57,061 nt of DNA from Nitrospirota bacterium (GTDB lineage: Bacteria; JACPQY01). The stretch lies in NCBI GenBank assembly GCA_016180645.1, contig JACPAV010000034.1, positions 1-57,061 of the forward strand, in the 5' to 3' direction. Positions 16,899 to 57,061 of the stretch are shown one piece after another. The position numbers were made by a program, and so were the translations under genes. Position 1 is the stretch's first letter. Every line of letters starts with the position of its first letter. The notes under the pieces are model-generated. The model had not been told where the DNA came from. It ran no database searches and worked only from the letters and a program-made list of their open reading frames with translations.

Positions 16899-17002
16899 GG
16901 GGTCAAGTCTTGAATTGGCACAGGTGGGCAGGGATGGTGGTTCACAGATGTATCAATTCAAGACTTGACCCCAGGTCTGCCAAGACTTGACCCCAGGTCT
17001 GC
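16899..17002. mobile_element. 74-bp gene-less derivative (16899-16972) of the RAYT-like element, plus a 22-bp tandem duplication of its right end
   Basis: GGGGTCAAGTCTTGAATTGGCA (16899-16920) is identical to 52170-52191; right arm CAATTCAAGACTTGACCCC; CAAGACTTGACCCCAGGTCTGC occurs at 16959-16980 and 16981-17002. Confidence 0.85.
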
Positions 17003-48229: not shown

Positions 48230-49768
48230 ATAAAACGATTTTCGATCTCACACGGATCTCCACGCAGCTTGGGTTGGCTTGTCGTGTGCCTCTTTTCGTT
48301 GGCCGTCAGCCCGTGTGAGGAACAGGACAAAACGAAAGGCCCTACGCGGATCGGCCCCGAGGGCGGCGTGGAAAAAGGGCCGAACGGCTCGGAGGTGATC
48401 ATTCCGGCGGGATCGGTGGGCACGGATTACTCGGAGTGGCAAAAGTGCAAGCCCGAAGAATGCGGGGTGCCGACCGACGTTGAGATTACCAAGGAATCCG
48501 TCCCGAAAGATTTGGTCCCGCCGGAGGGGGCGGAGGTATTCAGCGACGTGTACATTGTGCGGGCGTCAAGACACGTCTTCGCGCCGAACCCCGTTTCCAA
48601 ATACATGTTCATCATTAAGATCCCGCTGAAGGACAGGGTGGCGCCAGGGGAGGAGGTGTGCTCGACGGATTTGGCGGAGTTGTGGTGGTGCACCGATTTT
48701 GAGGGGGAAGACTTGGATCCCTCGGGCCGGTTTGTGCTTGCGCGTTCGGCCGAACTCTACGGTCCCGACAGCCCGGCCGTCATCCGACTTCCGGGTACGC
48801 CTACGGAACTCAAACTCGTTGTATTCCGAAAGACCCCGGAGAAGCTTCCTCAGGTGGCGCCCCAGCGAGCCTCCGTGAGCGGCAGGTATTTCGAGGCATT
48901 TGCCCCCAAGGGGATTGCGCCTCAACAGGTTCAGGCCGTCTTGACTTCTCTCGACGCGTCGATCGAGACGTACCGACGCTTGGGTTTCCGAGAACCGAAG
49001 CTCGATGCCTTCTCGGGATCACAGGCTTTCCGGTTGCGGATACTGCGGAACACCACCCCGCCCTGCACGGATCCCAACCTCTTGGGTCAATACGAACCGC
49101 AACAAGTGGAACAGAATGGGGTTCGTGCCCCGAGCGGTTGGCGGCCCCACCTCATCATCTGCCAACGCAGCCTGTCGGAACCGGCCGTGCTCCAGACCAC
49201 CGCCGCGCACGAGCTTTTTCATGCGATCCAGTTTTCCTATTTCAACTGGCCGCGGTTCCGAGACGCCTGGGAGGAAGGGAAACCCCTTCTGTGGTTCACC
49301 GAGGGTTCCGCCGAGGCCCTCGCTGGAACCGTGGCTGCGGGCGGCACGCCGCAAGCCACGAGCGATTACGATCCACTCTCGCTCAAAGACTCCGTCTTGG
49401 CGGACCGTGTCTGTGAAAACCGGGGAGGCACGCTTTGCTACCAGGCGCAGGATTTCTTCGTCTTCCTCGCCCTGAGCCGGACCGACTCGATCTGGGGCTT
49501 CCTCAAGCAAGCGCTCCAGGCATTTGCCGTAGGCACAGACGCCGTTTCCGCCCTGGAAGCCGCACTCGCGCCGGGATCGATTCAGAAGAGCTACCTCGCG
49601 TTTGCCGAGGAACGCGCCTACCGGCATGCGCAAAAAATTCACGCCGCGGAAATTCCACTCAAACAAGCCGCGCCGCGGCCCCGACCGAGGAAAATCACGG
49701 AAACTTTTCTGCGTGGCGGGAGCAGCGCGATTATTTCGCGCCAGTCTTGTCTTCGCCTTACCGACTGA
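48230..49768 (+). CDS. Secreted/lipoprotein with HExxH zinc-metallopeptidase-like domain; possibly degraded
   Basis: AAHELFHAIQ...WFTEGSAE; signal-like N-terminus; in-frame ATA at 48230 after an AAGGAG RBS (first standard start is TTG at 48269). Confidence 0.7.
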   Translation: MKRFSISHGSPRSLGWLVVCLFSLAVSPCEEQDKTKGPTRIGPEGGVEKGPNGSEVIIPAGSVGTDYSEWQKCKPEECGVPTDVEITKESVPKDLVPPEGAEVFSDVYIVRASRHVFAPNPVSKYMFIIKIPLKDRVAPGEEVCSTDLAELWWCTDFEGEDLDPSGRFVLARSAELYGPDSPAVIRLPGTPTELKLVVFRKTPEKLPQVAPQRASVSGRYFEAFAPKGIAPQQVQAVLTSLDASIETYRRLGFREPKLDAFSGSQAFRLRILRNTTPPCTDPNLLGQYEPQQVEQNGVRAPSGWRPHLIICQRSLSEPAVLQTTAAHELFHAIQFSYFNWPRFRDAWEEGKPLLWFTEGSAEALAGTVAAGGTPQATSDYDPLSLKDSVLADRVCENRGGTLCYQAQDFFVFLALSRTDSIWGFLKQALQAFAVGTDAVSALEAALAPGSIQKSYLAFAEERAYRHAQKIHAAEIPLKQAAPRPRPRKITETFLRGGSSAIISRQSCLRLTD

Positions 49769-49810
49769 AGGGGGAGAACGGATGGTACAAGGATATGAAA
49801 GGAGTTCTGA

Positions 49811-50536
49811 ATGAGAAACAAGATGGGAACGAGAAAACGCATCGCATGGGCATTCCTGCCCGCCGCCTTTGCGCCGGTGTTCATTGGGGGATGCGCCTCC
49901 ATGTCCGCACTCCAGACGGCCCGCACGTTGCCCCAAGGTCAGGTTGTGGTCGTTGGGGCCGCAGGGGTGACGGGGGTCCATGTCGAATCAAGTGACCCCG
50001 GTGCAGGGGACGAGGATTTTGTCCTACCGGTGGTTGAGTCCATGGCCCGCCTGGGTGTCTGGCCAGGCCTGGATGTCGGACTCAAGTACTTTGTAGGAGG
50101 CATCCTCGCGGACGCGAAATATCAATTCCATGGACGAGAGCCCGCATCGGACACGGGATTGGCTGCGGGTTTCGGTGTGGACTACTCGGGGCGGGACGTG
50201 AACTGGTGGGATCTCTATTTCCCGATCTATGCCAGCTACGATCCATCCGAGTGGTTCAGCGTGTATGGCTCGCCTCGATATGTCCTGCGCCTAGCCGACA
50301 CCCTGGGAAACCACCATCTCCTCGGGGCCGTAGGGGGGATTGCGATGGGCAAAGAGAAGCGAGTGTTTATTGAGGCCGGATACATGCTGGACACGGGGCT
50401 CGGCCTCGTAAAAGGACCTAGCTTCCAGGGAACCGTTGGACTGACGCTCGATTCAAAGCGGCTTTTCTCGCGCCGCGAATCCCCCCCAGACTCCCCGTCT
50501 TCAGCCGACGGACCGGCCGTGCCGGCTCCGAATTGA
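49811..50536 (+). CDS. Putative lipoprotein with outer-membrane beta-strand-rich domain
   Basis: Basic N-terminus, hydrophobic stretch, IGGC lipobox-like motif, alternating amphipathic strands; AGGAG RBS. Confidence 0.7.
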   Translation: MRNKMGTRKRIAWAFLPAAFAPVFIGGCASMSALQTARTLPQGQVVVVGAAGVTGVHVESSDPGAGDEDFVLPVVESMARLGVWPGLDVGLKYFVGGILADAKYQFHGREPASDTGLAAGFGVDYSGRDVNWWDLYFPIYASYDPSEWFSVYGSPRYVLRLADTLGNHHLLGAVGGIAMGKEKRVFIEAGYMLDTGLGLVKGPSFQGTVGLTLDSKRLFSRRESPPDSPSSADGPAVPAPN

Positions 50537-50629
50537 AAAGGCGAACCCATGAATGACCCAGTCACACTGTCGCGCATCTCGGCGAGTGAGAATACCTTGA
50601 ACGAATCACCCCAAAACAAAGGAGGACGA

Positions 50630-50944
50630 ATGAAAAGAACACCCTTCCTACTAGCATTGTCAACGGCCTTGGTGCTGGCCGCCTGCGCCGTTGCTCCGGC
50701 TCCCTTGGTCGGAACGCTCTACACGAATGTCTCCTACCCACGGCAGGTCTGGCACGGCCTGGAGACGTCGAAAAGAGGAGAAGCCTGCGCCTCAAGCATC
50801 TTGGGGCTCGTCGCCACCGGCGACGCCAGCATTGAGGCGGCGAAGAAGGATGCGGGGATTCACGAGGTGGCATCGGTGGACCACACCGGATCGAGCGTCC
50901 TCTTCTTCTATTCCACCTACTGCACGATTGTGACGGGCAAGTAG
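50630..50944 (+). CDS. TRL-like family lipoprotein
   Basis: AGGAGG RBS, LAAC lipobox, GEACASSILGLVATGDASIEAAK...VDH...CTIVTG. Confidence 0.85.
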   Translation: MKRTPFLLALSTALVLAACAVAPAPLVGTLYTNVSYPRQVWHGLETSKRGEACASSILGLVATGDASIEAAKKDAGIHEVASVDHTGSSVLFFYSTYCTIVTGK

Positions 50945-51173: not shown

Positions 51174-52184
51174 ATGACATTGAGTACGGGTGTAGTCACG
51201 CGGCCGCCGCTGGAACGGTTCTGGATCATTCATCGGAGCCTGCGCGCGGGTCGAACGGAGGACGGCGAACGGCCGAGCTGCACCTCGCTGGCGCGCCTCC
51301 TCGAGGTCTCCACGAAAACGGTCCAGCGGGACATCGATTTCATGCGGGACCGCCTCAAGGCGCCCATCGAATACCACCGCGAGTCGAAATCATGGCGGTA
51401 CATGCGCGATGACTACGCGTTTGCACTGAACAGCCTATCTGAAGAAGACCTCTTCGCCCTCATCTATGGGTGCCAGGTCCTCCAGAAAATCGGCGTGGGC
51501 GCTCTGGGTGACGAACTGCTGGCGCTGGCGAGGGAGACCAATCCTTCGAATCCGTCGGGAGAATCGTCCCTTGTGTCTTTCTCCGATGAACCGGGCGTCA
51601 TCCTCGATCCGGGCATCCTGCGCCCGGTCATCCAAGGCCTGCTCAGGCGAAGGCGGTTGGACATCACATACTTCACCATCTACCGGGAGGCCGTCACCCG
51701 GCGCCAGGTGGATCCCTACCACCTCGGGAGATACATGGGGCGCTGGTTCCTGATCGGGTACGACCACTTCCGGAAGGGCAGGCGCGTCTTCGCCGTCGCC
51801 CAGATCAAACAAGTGCGCGTTCTGCGGCAGACCTTCACGGTGCCTCCGGAATTCAACCCGAGAAAATACATCGGGGAGGATGGATTCAGCTTCGAGCGGC
51901 TGAGCGGCCCGGTGAAGGTGGAGCTGGCGTTCGAGAGGCAGGCCGGACTCGTAGCCCGTGAACTCATCTGGCACAAGACCCAGCGGTTCGAGGAAGGCGC
52001 CGACGGCCGCATCCATCTTATTTTCGAGACGAAAAACCTCCAGCAGGTGCTCCGATGGGTTCTGGCCCGAGGCGCGGACGTGGAGGTTGTGACCCCCGCG
52101 GAACTCCGGCGTGAAGCGTACAAGGTCTTGTCCAAGGCCGCAGGCTTCTACGCAGGCGACAACAACAATGGGGTCAAGTCTTGA
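51174..52184 (+). CDS. HTH-WYL-WCX transcriptional regulator (PafBC/DriD-like)
   Basis: LEVSTKTVQRDI HTH, RRQVDPYHL, WFLIGY...RVFAVAQI WYL motif, WVLARG...EVVTPAELR WCX. Confidence 0.92.
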   Translation: MTLSTGVVTRPPLERFWIIHRSLRAGRTEDGERPSCTSLARLLEVSTKTVQRDIDFMRDRLKAPIEYHRESKSWRYMRDDYAFALNSLSEEDLFALIYGCQVLQKIGVGALGDELLALARETNPSNPSGESSLVSFSDEPGVILDPGILRPVIQGLLRRRRLDITYFTIYREAVTRRQVDPYHLGRYMGRWFLIGYDHFRKGRRVFAVAQIKQVRVLRQTFTVPPEFNPRKYIGEDGFSFERLSGPVKVELAFERQAGLVARELIWHKTQRFEEGADGRIHLIFETKNLQQVLRWVLARGADVEVVTPAELRREAYKVLSKAAGFYAGDNNNGVKS

Positions 52185-53176
52185 ATTGGCATTGGTTGGG
52201 GGGCTGGACGGATGGCACGACCCCTTCGAACTCAGTTCCCCGGGGCCGATCACCATGTCATGAACCGGGGACTCGATCGCGCGCCTGTCTTCGAGACCCA
52301 CGCCGATCATCAGCGATTCACCGAGCTTTTTCAGGACATTTCTCAACGTTGGGGCGCGCGCATTCTCGCCTACTGTTGCATGACCACTCATTACCATCTC
52401 TTTCTACAACCCCCCGGCGGCAACCTTTCCCGCTTCATGCGCCATGTCGATGGAGTCTACACCCAACGACTCAACCGCAACCGGGGCCGCGACGGTCCCC
52501 TTTTTCGAGGGCGATACAAGGCTGTCCTGGTCGATGTCGATTCACACCTCCTTCAACTCGTCCGGTACATCCACCTCAACCCGGTCGAGGCGGGACTCGT
52601 CGAGACGGCTGGATCATACCCATGGAGCAGTCATGGTCTCTATCGCGCCCGGAGCAAGCCCACCTGGCTGGCTCATGAGGAAGTCCTGGGTCATTTTTCC
52701 GGGCTGAAGGCTTTTGAGGAGTTTGTGGCGCGGGGGAATGATATCGTCCTCAAGACGTTCTTGGATGGGCATCGGCGCAGCCCTTTCCTCGGCTCCGCGG
52801 ATTTCCTATCCCGGGCGCTTCGCAGAACCGCCTCGTCGCGGGAGCATCCGCGTAGGGAACGCGCGCCTCAGTTTCGGACGGTGGAGGACGTGAAGGACAC
52901 CGTCACCCGAGAATCGGGAGTGGGCCGGGAGGAGTTGGAGAGATGCCGGCCCGGACGGCGGAACGGGAGGGATCTGGCCATCTACTTGGCCGCCCGTTGC
53001 GCGGGCTTTAGCCATGGGGACATCAGGGGTGGTTTTAGTTTGACCGGCGGCAGTGCGATCACCCGTGCGTGTGCGCGGGTGGAACGGTCCCTCTCCCGAG
53101 ACCGGACTCTGCGCAAGCTCTATCGAGAGATCATGCAAAAGGTGGACTCACCTATGCCAATTCAAGACTTGACCCC
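52170..53176 (+). mobile_element. RAYT-like element 1 bounded by perfect 22-bp inverted repeats GGGGTCAAGTCTTGAATTGGCA
   Basis: Arms at 52170-52191 and 53155-53176 enclose the transposase. Confidence 0.85.
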
Positions 53177-53294
53177 AAGGGTTTCCAAGCTGAACCTCCA
53201 TGGTGAAATCCCATGCAAGTGGGGGAGCGCCCACAGCGGTGGCGGGACCGAACGGGCTGCCCACGGCGAGCTCCCCGGGACCGAATTCACTTGA
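52212..53294 (+). CDS. Y1/HUH transposase (REP-associated tyrosine transposase-like) with C-terminal HTH; reads through the right IR
   Basis: HVMNRG, HYHL (HUH), RYIHLNPV (catalytic Tyr), YPWSS. Confidence 0.9.
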   Translation: MARPLRTQFPGADHHVMNRGLDRAPVFETHADHQRFTELFQDISQRWGARILAYCCMTTHYHLFLQPPGGNLSRFMRHVDGVYTQRLNRNRGRDGPLFRGRYKAVLVDVDSHLLQLVRYIHLNPVEAGLVETAGSYPWSSHGLYRARSKPTWLAHEEVLGHFSGLKAFEEFVARGNDIVLKTFLDGHRRSPFLGSADFLSRALRRTASSREHPRRERAPQFRTVEDVKDTVTRESGVGREELERCRPGRRNGRDLAIYLAARCAGFSHGDIRGGFSLTGGSAITRACARVERSLSRDRTLRKLYREIMQKVDSPMPIQDLTPRVSKLNLHGEIPCKWGSAHSGGGTERAAHGELPGTEFT

Positions 53295-53319
53295 CGCGTC
53301 ACGTGTGGGCGAGTAGCGT
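53291..53319 (+). promoter_or_regulatory. Putative sigma70 promoter TTGACG-N17-TAGCGT
   Basis: Same -10 and spacer length as the 47793 promoter. Confidence 0.5.
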
Positions 53320-53576
53320 GTCCAGCAGGATGCGAAGTACGGGGAGAGAAGGAGGGCCAGTGGTTTGAAAATCATCTCGGCCCCCCGGTCTACACGATTC
53401 CTCAACTCTCCTTGCGCATGCCGGAGAACAGATCCTGTTCGAATTCATGGTTCCATGGGATGGGCACTGACGAATGACCCCCGGGGGAGCGACGAGTTGC
53501 CGTTCGTGGTCCTTGAAGCAGATGCGTGGGGGGGCAGAGTTCAGTCAAGCGTTGCTAAACTTGACGGAGGGAACAA

Positions 53577-54623
53577 TGGGGTCAAGTCTTGACTTGATAC
53601 TACTTGGAGCGATTTGATGGCGCGGCCGTTGCGAGTCGAATTTCCCGGGGCGTACTACCACGTGATGAACCGCGGCCTCGATCGGCAGCCGGTCTTCGAG
53701 CGGGAAGCCGATCATGGGCGATTCGTGGATCTGCTCGCGGATGTCGCGACGCGGTGGGACGTCAAAGTAATGGCCTATTGCTGTATGAAGACCCACTACC
53801 ATCTTTTCTTGCAGACCCCTCGCGGGAACGTGTCTCGGGTGATGAGACATGTGGACGGACTGTACACCCAGCGATTCAACCGGGCTCGCGGGCGTGACGG
53901 TCCGTTGTTCCGAGGCCGCTACAAGGCTCTTCTGGTGGATGCGGATGCCTACCTGTTGCAACTGGTCCGGTATATTCACCTCAACCCTGTTGAAGCCGGC
54001 GTGGCGAGGTCCGCGAGGGCCTACCCGTGGAGCAGTCACCCCTTGTACCTTGCCTCGAAGAAGCCGGGATGGTTGGCGTGGCAGGAGGTGCTGGGTCGAT
54101 TCTCGAACCTTGGCGCCTTCGAGCGGTTTGTGGCGGAGGGGAACGAGGCTGCGCTGAGGGACCATATGGAGAGTGGGCGTCGGAGCCCGTTTCTGGGGGA
54201 TGGGGGATTTCTTGCCGCGGCGATCAGGAGGGCCCGACCGTCTCGGGAGCATGCGCGGAAGGAACGGACCCCGCAGTTCCCCTCCTTGGGCGCCGTGGTG
54301 CAGGCGGTGATTCGGAAGACGGGTCGGACTTCACCGGAGATCGTGAAGGGGCGTCGGGGTCGGACGAACAACGCGCGGAACCTGGCGATCTACGTTTCCA
54401 GCCGGGTGGCGGGGTTTCCGAATGCGGAGATACGGCGGCATTTCGGCCTGGGGAGCGACAGCGCCGTGACGAAGGCGTGCGTTCGGGCCGACGGCTTGCT
54501 CCGTGCGGACGGGAGGGCCAAGAGGCTGTTGAAGGGGATCACCGCGCAGCAGGAGGCGCGTGAAGAACGTTCATGATCCGACGCAAGACGGGTCGAGAAG
54601 TATCAAATCAAGACTTGACCCCA
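53577..54623 (+). mobile_element. RAYT-like element 2 bounded by 25-bp inverted repeats TGGGGTCAAGTCTTGA(C/T)TTGATACT
   Basis: Arms at 53577-53601 and 54599-54623, one mismatch. Confidence 0.85.
53617..54576 (+). CDS. Y1/HUH transposase (RAYT-like) with C-terminal DnaA-C-like HTH; paralog of 52212
   Basis: MARPLRVEFPGAYYHVMNRG, HYHL, RYIHLNPV, YPWSS, ARNLAIY. Confidence 0.92.
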   Translation: MARPLRVEFPGAYYHVMNRGLDRQPVFEREADHGRFVDLLADVATRWDVKVMAYCCMKTHYHLFLQTPRGNVSRVMRHVDGLYTQRFNRARGRDGPLFRGRYKALLVDADAYLLQLVRYIHLNPVEAGVARSARAYPWSSHPLYLASKKPGWLAWQEVLGRFSNLGAFERFVAEGNEAALRDHMESGRRSPFLGDGGFLAAAIRRARPSREHARKERTPQFPSLGAVVQAVIRKTGRTSPEIVKGRRGRTNNARNLAIYVSSRVAGFPNAEIRRHFGLGSDSAVTKACVRADGLLRADGRAKRLLKGITAQQEAREERS

Positions 54624-54711: not shown

Positions 54712-54739
54712 TTGACATCATGTGGAGATTCGATAGAGT
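54712..54739 (+). promoter_or_regulatory. Putative sigma70 promoter TTGACA-N16-TAGAGT
   Basis: Consensus -35; similar position relative to the right IR as the 53291 promoter. Confidence 0.5.
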
Positions 54740-54922
54740 ACGCTCAAGGGAGACGGATACGGGGTCGTCTGAAGGGACCCCAAGGCACTTAAACGTTGTT
54801 AAAGTACGTTGCACTGCAAAGGGGAGGGAGCAGGATGACAGTGAGGGAGGGACCGCCAGTGGGTGGAGGATTGGGGAGCAAATGAATCTCGCCGGAGATT
54901 CCGTCTGCCTTTCGCCCGTTCA

Positions 54923-55011
54923 CCCCGTTAGAGGCCCCGTGGCTTGCCACGGGGTATCTTCGCTTCAGCACAAGCCCGGGGTCCGAAGCCCGGTGCGGGG
55001 ATCTAACGGGG
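54923..55011. mobile_element. 89-bp MITE-like element CCCCGTTAGA...TCTAACGGGG flanked by TTCA direct repeats
   Basis: TTCA at 54919-54922 and 55012-55015; internal hairpin CCCCGTGGCTTGCCACGGGG. Confidence 0.78.
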
Positions 55012-56441
55012 TTCACCGGAATCTTTCATCGTTCAAGATTTTCCAAGTCAGTATATCCGTGGGGTCCCGATCCCCCATAGCCCTGCAAGATGGGCCCATA
55101 TTCGGGACCCCCGGTGCAAATTCTTCATGGCCTCACCTACTACGACGCAGAGACTTCATGGGATTTCGATTCGTCGTCCCCGAAACGGAGTGGAGGGGAC
55201 CGTACTTGGAGCTTTGCGGAGAGTGCGGTGAATTTTCTTCAACGAATTCCTCGCAACAATCCGCTGCCCGGCGATGCAAGGACTGAATGGTGTTTCCAAT
55301 CATCGTACCCCATGCCTAGGAGGGTATGGGGCCATGATATGTCGCCGCGCCCAGGATGGCGCGGCATGGACCATGGCCCGAAGCGCAGCGGAGGTGTGCT
55401 CCCAAACGTCTCCCGGGGGTCGGGCCAAGCGGTGCCGCGCTGTGTGGGTACCAGGGAGAATGGAGGGAGTCCGCCGCGTGGCGGATTCCCCCTTCTCAAG
55501 TTTCACGAAGTCCTGCGAAGGCAACGGGGAGCGAGTCCGTGGGGGCGTCCGCCAGCCGGCGGAGCCCCCCGGCAAATTTCTTTCGCCTTACGATTCACGA
55601 GTTCACTGGCTTACGGGTTCACGACTTGTGCGCGGAACGGGGAAAACCTTTTGTGTTCGTTCAACCCCCCCCATCCTGGCCTTCCCCCTCAAGGGGGGAA
55701 GGGGTGGTAGCCGCACTCCCTTGCCGAGGACGGTATGGGGCCATGACATGTCGCCGTGCCACGGACGGCGCGGCATGGAACATGGCCTTCATGGGTGCGT
55801 CTTCAGACGCAGGCGTAAAGCCTGCGCCTACCTCCTACCCCTTGAGGGTGAGGATTCAGGTGGGGGTGAACGCTTGCGTAAGCTCCATGCGAGTGGGGGG
55901 AGCGAACCGTCCGGAGTGCGTCTGTCCAGTGGCGGACGCCCCGGCAAATCAGAATACCCGCCGCCCGGTCCGCAAACGTCTCCCGCGGGCCGGGCCAAGC
56001 GGTGCCCTATCGATGCGAAGTCTCTATAGGAAAAATGCGAGTAAGGGGGAGCAGCCGGGGTTCGGGGCCGCAAAGCTCCGACCCCGGCAAATTTGCGTTC
56101 TCATGTGGGCACAAGGGAGTCCGAGGGCTGGACTGCACGGTCCGGCCCTCGGCAAGTCTCTTTCGCCCTACGATTCCCGGTTCACGGGATCACTGGCTCA
56201 CGGGTTCACGACTTGTGCGCGGAACGGGGAAAACCTTTTGTGCTCGTTCAACCCCCCATCCTGGCCTTCCCCCTCAAGGGGGGAAGGGGTGGTAGCCGCA
56301 CCCCCTTGCCGAGGACGGTAAAGCCTGCGCCTACCCCCTACCCCTTGAGGGTGAGGATTCATATGGGGCTGAACGCTGTTCTATCAACCCCAAAAGGAGG
56401 ACACCTCTATGAAACGATTTTCGATGCACGGCACATGAAAC

Positions 56442-56469
56442 CGAGAAGTATCAAGTCAAGACTTGACCC
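56442..56469. repeat. Orphan right-end copy of RAYT-like element 2
   Basis: AGTATCAAGTCAAGACTTGACCC is the exact reverse complement of 53579-53601. Confidence 0.85.
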
Positions 56470-56616
56470 GTGCGCCGTTGACGATGCGGGGGGCGACCCC
56501 AAATGTGCAGGGATGGAAGGTTGGGCTTAGGCTTTGCGGAATAAGTACAAGGCAGTTCCCCCCACCACGATGGCTACGGTCAGCCCGAAAAGCGATGAAA
56601 GGATCAACTCCATGCT

Positions 56617-56823
56617 CTACCCTTTCCAAATCTTATAAGCGATGAGAAGAAAAAGCAAGATCATGACCACGCCCATGCCCAGGGAAACCAGATATGTTCC
56701 GACACCGATTTCCGCCTTGAGAAAACGCAATCCCGTAGGCGTAGCAACCAGGATCAGGAATGAAATCTCGGCAAGCCTGAGAAAGAACTTCACGAAATCC
56801 GTCCGATCCCTTCCCGCTTCCAT
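56617..56823 (-). CDS. Small two-TM membrane protein (68 aa)
   Basis: Two clear hydrophobic helices with basic flanks; unique sequence between repeat copies. Confidence 0.55.
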   Translation of the reverse strand: MEAGRDRTDFVKFFLRLAEISFLILVATPTGLRFLKAEIGVGTYLVSLGMGVVMILLFLLIAYKIWKG

Positions 56824-57061
56824 CGAGTCCGGCTTCTATCAGGCTGGACATCGCGAGTCAAACGCTTTCATTAGGAGAGAGCCGAAAGCTGATAGCTGGA
56901 TGCTTGTGGGAATGCTCCTTGACGACTCACGCTTCACAATCCACCATTCACCCATGATGCGAGGAACGGGGAAAACCTTTTGTGCTCGTTCAACCCCCCA
57001 TCCTGGCCTTCCCCCTCAAGGGGGGAAGGGGTGGTAGCCGCACCCCCTTGCCGAGGACGGT

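Follow-up and report, generated by a model that had tools for sequence, protein, structure and literature searches.

Two TIRtrons with diverged Y1 HUH enzymes downstream of a WYL regulator gene in a Nitrospirota genome

Results and discussion

The locus and its two TIR-bounded elements

The window analysed here is a stretch of 57,061 nt from contig JACPAV010000034.1 of a Nitrospirota bacterium, read on the forward strand. The features of the locus under study are listed below.

51174..52184, + strand: HTH-WYL-WCX (YafY/PafC-like) regulator gene with Pfam matches; last codons (GVKS*) from the left TIR of element 1
52169..52196, + strand: left TIR of TIRtron 1, with GGGG from 52170; holds the WYL stop codon
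52212..53294, + strand: TIRYT 1 gene (Y1a), with HUH residues H60/H62, Y119 and C-terminal DnaA-IV-like helices
53150..53177, - strand: right TIR of TIRtron 1 (element 1, 52170-53176, 1007 bp)
53577..53604, + strand: left TIR of TIRtron 2, with GGGG from 53578
53617..54576, + strand: TIRYT 2 gene (Y1b), 319 aa, with a Y1_Tnp match and a structure model
54596..54623, - strand: right TIR of TIRtron 2 (element 2, 53578-54622, 1045 bp)

As the initial annotation had described, each Y1 gene is enclosed by long inverted repeats (IRs), whose 28-nt GGGGTCAAG arms are 96% complementary in element 1 and 93% in element 2; all four ends contain the palindrome TCAAG-T-CTTGA, and the flanks AACAAT and AAGGG are common to both elements, with no target duplication seen. 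Its statement that the repeats match within each element has to be corrected for element 2, the ends of which differ at repeat position 16 (C/T). The TGA of the WYL gene (52182-52184) does lie within the left repeat of element 1, 27 nt upstream of the Y1a ATG at 52212. Since the Y1a reading frame meets no stop codon before the right repeat, it runs 118 nt past the right TIR; homology of the protein ends at about aa 313. Element 2 is located about 400 bp beyond element 1, on the margin of a repeat-rich intergenic region. We consider it probable that the window elements are two independently diverged TIRtrons with GGGGTCA-type TIRs, and that element 1 inserted into the 3' end of the coding sequence of an ordinary WYL gene, whose TGA is now provided by the repeat. 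The sharing of 6+5 flank bases by the two neighbours counts against this reading, being rarer than a weak flank bias explains; 6 flank bases are shared by 5 of 666 end pairs.

Motifs, domains and fold of the Y1 enzymes

The two Y1 proteins are diverged paralogues, as annotated, with 58% identity over 314 aa; the Y1 paralogues in the genome are 56-62% identical, and each element is single-copy there. Both window proteins keep H60-Y-H62 and Y119-x-H-x-N-P, and residues H60, H62, Y119, H121 and N123 are invariant in 63 aligned proteins including these two. Of the three profiles named in the initial annotation, two were recovered: both Y1 ORFs scored above the cut-off for Y1_Tnp, and the WYL ORF matched WYL (59.3 bits) as well as WCX (46.1 bits), with HTH_11 below cut-off. 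The third, Bac_DnaA_C, matched the element 2 protein only and below its cut-off (17 vs 31.5 bits), and PF08299 was found on many homologues. The predicted structure of Y1b (pLDDT 90.6) has E. coli TnpA-REP (4ER8) as its best fold match, and its C-terminal region resembles 3PVP, the DNA-binding domain of DnaA (TM 0.80 on the target, E 0.015). The earlier description of the genes as RAYT-like Y1 enzymes encoded between terminal inverted repeats, each with an HTH of DnaA-IV type at the C-terminus, is supported.

The elements belong to a known class

The window elements are not a new module but belong to a known class, the TIRtrons/TIRYTs, and by their motifs and C-terminal tail probably to TnpAY1 subclass 2.1.2. 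Subclass 2.1.2 is Group 1 of Bertels 2017 (PMC5581495); of the species that Quentin 2018 (PMC6006769) sampled, about 15% carry subclass 2.1. The enzymes fit the published definition (PMC6006769, PMC3733652) in their HYH and YIHLNP motifs and in having a DnaA-like tail. With subclass 2.1.2 (PMC6006769) the window enzymes share HYH, Y[IV]HLNP and the SS motif after the core, together with a Bac_DnaA_C-like tail, the lack of GTAG REPs and the presence of several diverged copies per genome. No REP-like repeats were detected around genes of this subclass in PMC6006769, whereas a modest TIR family is present here (26 exact genome copies of the 15-mer TIR core, against 0 of the reversed control pattern).

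According to Di Nocera, De Gregorio and Rocco 2013 (PMC3733652), who distinguish four groups, a TIRtron is a RAYT-like gene between long TIRs, which start with GGGGWSAS; the TIRs are dispersed as dimers or singles, several genes with different TIRs occur per genome, and overlap between gene and TIR is allowed. The gene between long TIRs, the dispersal (11 short pairs plus solo ends), the several genes with different TIRs and the overlap are likewise seen here. GGGGTCAA agrees with GGGGWSAS at 7 of 8 positions, the final base being A and not C/G; in relatives, TIR position 8 is A in 58 of 94 and G in 28 of 94. In the passages of PMC3733652 consulted, neither movement from TIR to TIR nor duplications at the tips nor a promoter within the repeat are described; the present analysis provides evidence for the first two and a putative promoter. 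The literature searched on this class, which was described in 2013, consists of computational work, and no experimental test was found in it.

Two other groups of Y1 elements are close enough for comparison. REPtrons, to which the TnpA-REP fold match belongs, likewise have paired imperfect inverted repeats that are non-autonomous, and the nick-extend-religate amplification model for BIMEs (PMC3333891) is similar to that proposed below. Unlike REPtrons, with their GT[AG]G-foot hairpins, the four window ends have no GTAG foot, the enzymes carry an extra C-terminal HTH and score 70-71 bits with NF047646 (cut-off 80), and the entire cassette, gene included, appears to be mobile. The Y1 HUH core is also like that of the IS200/IS605 elements IS608 and ISDra2 (Foldseek E ~1e-5), and target duplication is seen in neither; however, IS200/IS605 elements have subterminal hairpins and enzymes of about 150 aa with YxxxQ, while the window elements have TIRs, 319 aa, YxxxNP and no tnpB, and their proteins reach 19-21 bits with NF033573 (cut-off 55).

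No linkage of WYL and Y1 genes at the outside loci surveyed

The initial annotation had proposed a WYL-controlled module. In a survey of about 148 distinct Y1 ORFs, 118 of which had 1 kb or more of upstream sequence, and 52 distinct WYL ORFs, 49 of which had 500 nt or more downstream, 0 outside loci carried both genes; this is the outcome that the annotation itself had named as refuting the proposal. The WYL profile used recovered 2 of the 3 WYL genes identified by Pfam in this genome, so that distant WYL genes could escape the survey. Five further genomes gave 42 Y1 places and 2 WYL genes, none of them neighbours. The orthologue of element 2 (L001, 85%) is located elsewhere, with no WYL gene nearby. 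TIR-like motifs near the stops of two outside WYL genes (L329, L088) were rejected as TIRs and had no Y1 gene. A scan of viral contigs for WYL gave 7 partial HTH matches, and the literature searched contained neither a WYL-TIRYT link nor a co-mention of WYL and REP-associated tyrosine transposases. The conserved linkage to regulated genes that would be expected of a WYL-regulated operon (BrxR/CapW-like) was not seen. The elements most likely lie behind the WYL gene by chance.

A conserved WYL-HUH module for ssDNA-sensing mobility with strict enzyme-IR pairs is largely refuted already by this survey, and we regard it as highly improbable. It would account for the adjacency of WYL and Y1 in this genome, for a second WYL gene 12 kb from the third element (contig C46) and for TIR variants that track enzyme lineage (TIR identity 0.97 for Y1b/L001 and 0.97 for the third element/L003), but not for the missing co-occurrence elsewhere, the position of the WYL gene outside the element boundaries or the mini-elements that mix TIR variants; nor do the two terms appear together in the literature searched.

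The WYL protein has the domain order HTH, WYL, WCX of YafY/PafC/BrxR/DriD-like regulators, and its homologues are annotated as YafY or proteasome accessory factor B; unlike such regulators, it has no conserved partner gene in the survey. WYL proteins are known for ligand sensing and autoregulation. The closest relatives of the WYL protein in the window (P0002, 67%, 355 aa; P0003, 51%, 383 aa) are both longer and lack GVKS, and a TIR-derived tail is present in 1 of 120 homologues, the query itself. This protein comparison suggests that the original tail may have been lost on insertion of element 1, although most distant homologues stop at roughly the same place anyway. The WYL gene is probably a bystander, and in the explanation that we favour with good confidence it is an ordinary regulator gene with no conserved role.

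Promoter context

The sequence TAnnnT was found 4-9 nt upstream of the start in 34 of 73 leaders (11.0 in shuffles); with a stricter -10 definition the result was borderline, the count of 24 of 73 being equalled by the shuffle maximum of 24, and the leaders are mutually related. The Y1a and Y1b leaders, 42 and 39 nt in length, are among the shortest and lack a -10 of their own, and no terminator-like site was seen between WYL and Y1a; read-through from WYL is therefore possible. Element 1, if devoid of its own promoter, might then be transcribed from an autoregulated, ssDNA-sensing WYL gene that gates Y1a in this lineage only. Besides the Y1a leader, without the -10 found in many relatives, and the missing terminator, the WYL stop in the TIR just before Y1a on the same strand fits this, as does the presence of contigs spanning WYL and Y1a in 3 of the 4 runs of a single study. 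However, no second case was found among the ORFs surveyed, the Y1b orthologue L001 has an equally short leader with no WYL nearby, the stop codon that Y1a should have ahead of the TIR is lost, and inspection by eye revealed no clear operator palindrome upstream of WYL; we judge such local capture to be improbable.

TIR family, mini-elements and enzyme-TIR pairing

The TIRs are not special to the WYL locus, as a third element, 11 gene-less mini-elements (short inward TIR pairs of 66-118 bp) and solo ends are found elsewhere in the genome. Three further features are in the window.

16899..16972, no strand assigned: gene-less intergenic mini-element, 74 bp, with one GGCA-type and one GATA-type end
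16973..17001, - strand: duplication at the tip of the mini-element, comprising 7-8 bases of flank and 14-15 of TIR, present twice
56441..56470, - strand: solitary element-2-type TIR, G-to-C at position 1

The solitary TIR and a solo end on contig C35 share the same G-to-C change and 6 flank bases. The mini-element folds as a long hairpin (z -7.9); the single TIR ends of the window fold no better than shuffles (z -0.73, 0.67, -1.83 and 0.13). A TCAAG-N-CTTGA hairpin was rejected as a family signal, since no more than 5 of the 94 related left ends have it; the TIRs often carry a GTCAA-N8/10-TTGAC dyad.

The suggestion that each enzyme is paired with its own IR variant stood in part. Across 35 elements, the more alike the enzymes, the more alike their TIRs (Mantel rho 0.43, 0 of 2000 permutations). 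Such a correlation is, however, expected from physical linkage by itself; and since 3 of the 11 mini-elements join a GGCA-type end to a GATA-type end, strict pairing is not established.

Element boundaries and mobility

The mobile unit is bounded by the TIRs and occurs in unrelated contexts, with gene-less miniature derivatives and tip duplications. Similarity ends at the TIRs, with different flanks, both between element 2 and L001 and between the third element and L003, and the loci L050 and L051 share 98.8% identity across 1036 nt, from TIR to TIR, in different flanks. Joined flanks from 14 TIR pairs of this genome and 97 pairs from other loci gave no convincing empty site, so that the insertion point, the exact ends and the lack of target duplication are provisional. 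No precise excision joint was present in contigs from 4 runs of one study, contigs being prone to lose rare variants; the joints listed between TIRs in those runs hold spacers, two of which match mini-elements on contigs C23 and C2.

Two further readings were not adopted. True ends 6 nt outside GGGG, co-travelling with the element, were suggested by the 11 of 666 end pairs that have 5-6 flank bases in common, at least 7 being shared by none, but were rejected as a rule, as near-identical copies of the L050/L051 type retain only 0-3 flank bases. A 1-bp target duplication would fit 7 of the 11 short pairs, but is seen in 0 of the 3 full elements.

Duplications at the TIR tips

Short flank-plus-TIR duplications were observed at 38 of 210 TIR ends, where shuffled sequences gave 1.9 and sites shifted away from the tip 5 of 786. 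In a set of new ends the count was 7 of 50, compared with 0.29 for shuffled sequences and 42 of 3002 for GGGGTC sites that are not TIRs; the rate in controls is about 1%, these controls being drawn regardless of intergenic position and the duplications read from assembled sequence. The signal is greatest at the tip, with 27 of 247 there and no more than 2 when positions 45-120 nt further out are examined. A 6-nt duplication also adjoins the left tip of the window mini-element. As a negative control, viral contigs were scanned for GGGGTC-N3-12-GGGGTCAAGTC; 53 loci had no Y1 or WYL matches, and a clean duplication was seen in 1 of 54 chance pattern matches. The counts were made with no requirement for an upstream GGGTC, so that junctions before base 6 are visible. 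Junctions cluster after G1-2 or GGGGTC(A) of the TIR, which suggests nicking, extension and religation at the TIR tip, as modelled for REP/BIME (PMC3333891); the duplications may mark enzyme cut sites. No description of them was found in the literature searched.

A tentative model of TIRtron transposition

As part of the explanation favoured here, the enzyme would bind the TIR, probably through its DnaA-like HTH, and nick one strand at the tip, after TIR base 1-2 or 6-7. Productive events would move the 1-kb cassette or mini-elements with no target duplication. In abortive events host polymerase would extend the 3'-OH by 4-12 nt before rejoining to the phosphotyrosine end, leaving the duplications. 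We further put forward, as a possibility that we rate somewhat below even, that TIRtrons represent a third mode of Y1 HUH transposition, in which a DnaA-like HTH holds two inverted ends, the outward-reading strand is nicked at the tip (TGACCC^C or TT^GACCCC), and duplications are left at about 1 tip in 7. In many relatives the TTGAC half may also serve as the -35 of a leaderless promoter; enzyme binding would then give autorepression, and a separate regulator would be unneeded. The TIR-to-TIR boundaries and clustered duplications predict nick sites that can be checked with short oligonucleotides, and the two window enzymes, the TIR variants and the doubly stuttered mini-element are substrates for a first biochemical test of a widespread class.

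Alternatively, TIRtrons could be domesticated and immobile, REPtron-like, with only mini-elements moving and the duplications due to replication slippage in G-runs or to assembly error. The single-copy state and divergence of the elements in this genome agree with this, as do the low copy number of class 2 genes (PMC6006769) and the rarity of related proteins on plasmids, of which 9 among 72,556 records gave a match, in each case below 45% identity. We nevertheless think it unlikely, as the near-identical L050 and L051 copies stand in different flanks, orthologues occupy non-syntenic places, and duplications are about 12-fold rarer at non-TIR GGGGTC sites and scarce among the viral-contig matches.

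WYL regulator gene and two TIRtrons in the window

The features concerned are the following.
51174..52184 (+), WYL gene, an HTH-WYL-WCX regulator gene
52170-53176, element 1, TIRtron with the gene Y1a (ORF 1) between terminal inverted repeats (TIRs)
53578-54622, element 2, TIRtron with the gene Y1b

The anatomy described in the initial annotation was confirmed: the TGA stop codon of the WYL gene, whose 336-aa product has HTH, WYL and WCX domains, lies within a 28-nt inverted repeat, 27 nt upstream of the first Y1 gene; the two diverged, paralogous Y1 genes are 58% identical, and the second copy is also enclosed by 28-nt repeats; both elements have AACAAT and AAGGG flanks, and there is no target duplication. 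The WYL gene and element 1 were found on one contig in 3 of the 4 runs of one study. ORF 1 runs 118 nt beyond the right repeat of element 1, unlike 30 of 34 other elements, in which the stop codon is at or before the right TIR. The proposed DnaA-type C-terminal tail gave a Pfam match under the cut-off, but in the confident structure model of Y1b (pLDDT 90.6), whose best match is E. coli TnpA-REP, the C-terminus matches the DnaA DNA-binding domain.

Upstream of the WYL gene (48269-50944), the + strand carries ORFs of 499 and 241 aa without a Pfam match and a gene for a TRL-like lipoprotein (PF13146). Aligned with positions 53676-54485, other contigs of run X2 carry a Y1b variant of about 93% identity; this suggests a related element of a co-occurring strain or species. 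Just past element 2 there is a near-consensus sigma-70-like site, TTGACA-16-TAGAGT (54712-54739, +), with no clear gene after it. At 54775-54792, 160 bp downstream of element 2, GACCCCAAGGCACTT is akin to the right tip and flank of that element (GACCCCAAGGGCACTT) and is possibly its remnant; a similar string is also present on contig C3 of the genome.

RAYT-like genes between TIRs with the motif GGGGWSAS are named TIRtrons in Di Nocera (2013, PMC3733652), where dispersed single and dimer TIRs are also noted. According to two further papers, TIRtron genes fall mostly in subclass 2.1, with a Bac_DnaA_C-like tail in branch 2.1.2 (Quentin 2018, PMC6006769), and the same group is the most IS-like among the true RAYT groups (Bertels 2017, PMC5581495). 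The window elements fit the TIRtron description except for the A at motif position 8, which also occurs in 58 of 94 relatives. Taken as a whole, it is quite probable that elements 1 and 2 are new members of this known class and have the WYL gene as a neighbour by chance.

Survey of WYL and Y1 genes

The WYL proteins DriD and PafBC sense ssDNA, and the two Y1 genes had been proposed to form a linked module with the WYL gene. Profiles built from 120 WYL and 119 Y1 homologues were searched across all outside loci, many of which are kin, and no locus carried both genes among about 148 distinct Y1 and 52 distinct WYL ORFs, the counts being approximate because de-duplication was by sequence key. The survey covered at least 1 kb upstream for 118 Y1 ORFs and at least 500 nt downstream for 49 WYL ORFs, and the WYL profile missed 1 of the 3 WYL genes of this genome. 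Five more genomes contained 42 Y1 places and 2 WYL genes, none adjacent, the nearest pair being 66 kb apart. A conserved WYL-HUH module is now very improbable.

The closest WYL relatives (67% and 51%) are 19-47 residues longer and are without the GVKS tail, which the query alone has among the 120 WYL homologues, and the WYL and WCX domains of the window gene are intact. We infer that element 1 probably took the place of a dispensable WYL tail. Three points count against the WYL gene being a bystander: Y1a lacks its own -10, nothing resembling a terminator was found between it and the WYL gene, and the shared 6+5 flank bases of elements 1 and 2 are only partly explained. Local read-through control of Y1a from the WYL gene is nevertheless unlikely, and we prefer chance neighbourhood.

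The stretch downstream (54900-57061) is a long gene-poor zone of dense dispersed repeats, with up to 110 BLAST matches per position and families of 115, 70, 60 and 34 nt, and the contig ends within one copy; this fits an insertion-tolerant zone.

Probable mobility and TIR variants

In L001, a relative of element 2 (85% to Y1b), the left TIR is the same but the flanks are unrelated. The match between L003 and the third TIRtron of the genome, on contig C46, covers exactly the TIR-bounded span. An 86% Y1b orthologue occurs in a genome of the same family and another genus, and two copies within one genome are 98.8% identical across 1036 nt, the identity ending at the TIRs. These comparisons argue for whole cassettes that would be mobile from TIR to TIR; no empty site was found. 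Five loci (L009, L010, L017, L022 and L037) have one TIR variant, GGGGTCAAGTCTGCTCTTGACTCA, in common; their record titles name Deltaproteobacteria, Nitrospiria/Nitrospirae and an archaeon (Methanoperedens). This distribution suggests either mis-binning or horizontal transfer on a wide scale. In L067 and L068 a TIRtron left end and gene start lie in a 368-bp tandem duplication.

Across the 35 complete elements, enzyme identity and TIR identity past base 7 were correlated (rho 0.43, 0 of 2000 permutations), and TIR likeness was 0.83 for left versus right ends within an element and 0.51 between elements. The correlation fits the suggested co-evolution of each enzyme with its own repeat variant, but also fits plain linkage. 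The palindrome TCAAG-N-CTTGA was present in only 5 of 94 related left ends; a dyad GTCAA-N8-TTGAC was present in 29 and its N10 form in 17 of the 94 (at least 4 of 5 matching). In many relatives the TTGAC half stands 16-18 nt ahead of a -10-like hexamer, with the start codon 4-9 nt on. Such a hexamer near the start was found in 34 of 73 cases versus 11.0 in shuffles, a stricter test being borderline, which suggests a built-in leaderless promoter beneath a putative enzyme binding site.

The repeat family in the genome

The 15-base TIR core has 26 exact copies in the 4.7-Mb genome. Pairing of the TIR ends yields 15 inward pairs. Three are element-sized (elements 1 and 2 and the third TIRtron, with a GGCTTTA variant), and 11 are gene-less, each of 66-118 bp, including one in the window:
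16899-16972, mini-element
A 24-bp pair was an overlap and was discounted. An element-1-type (GGCA) end is joined to an element-2-type (GATA) end in 3 of the 11 short pairs. The flank bias at the TIR ends is weak: of 37 ends, 26 have T at -1 and 22 have C at -4.

The third TIRtron (C46:14102-15115, L101) has ends of the GGCTTTA type and a leaderless promoter, TTGACA-17-TAGAGT; a tRNA-His gene lies at a distance of about 130 bp, and a second WYL gene is 12 kb off on the same contig. The genome has four further Y1 genes, more distantly related (26-35% identity), at C52:22213, C36:72361, C25:35409 and C25:105818; it also has a second family of TIR-like repeats, GGGGTCAGGTCTTGCA, which possibly goes with one of them. 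A mini-element subfamily of about 72 bp (C6, C23, C47 and C62) has not only the TIRs but also a spacer in common, and its members were therefore copied whole. The mini-element at C23:31419-31536 is composite, with a truncated inner end.

Duplications at the TIR tips

With the WYL module failing, the remaining result is a nick-site prediction that can be tested on a so far unstudied class of enzymes. At the tips of TIRs, 4-12 flank bases together with a TIR prefix are often duplicated head to tail. In an unbiased count, 38 of 210 distinct ends had such a duplication; shuffles yielded 1.9, and shifted sites 5 of 786. In a fresh set the count was 7 of 50, compared with 0.29 for shuffles and, among non-TIR GGGGTC sites, 42 of 3002. 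The controls of both sets were not intergenic-matched. Periods of at least 7 peaked at the tip (27 of 247); the count did not exceed 2 at 45-120 nt outside the tip and reached 7 at most at 25-55 nt inside it. The 27 junctions fell after TIR base 1-2 in 6 cases, at 4 in 1, within 6-9 in 14 (one ambiguous from base 4) and deeper in 6.

The simplest reading is that the enzyme would nick at the TIR tip, on a strand and at an exact site deduced from the duplications, that the 3'-OH would be extended a limited length, and that the extended end would be religated to the phosphotyrosine end, leaving the duplication. Nick, extension and religation have been modelled for REP/BIME arrays (PMC3333891). 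We found no description of tip duplications in the literature covered, from which subscription journals are mostly absent. Elements 1 and 2 have no tip duplication; the window mini-element has one at each tip.
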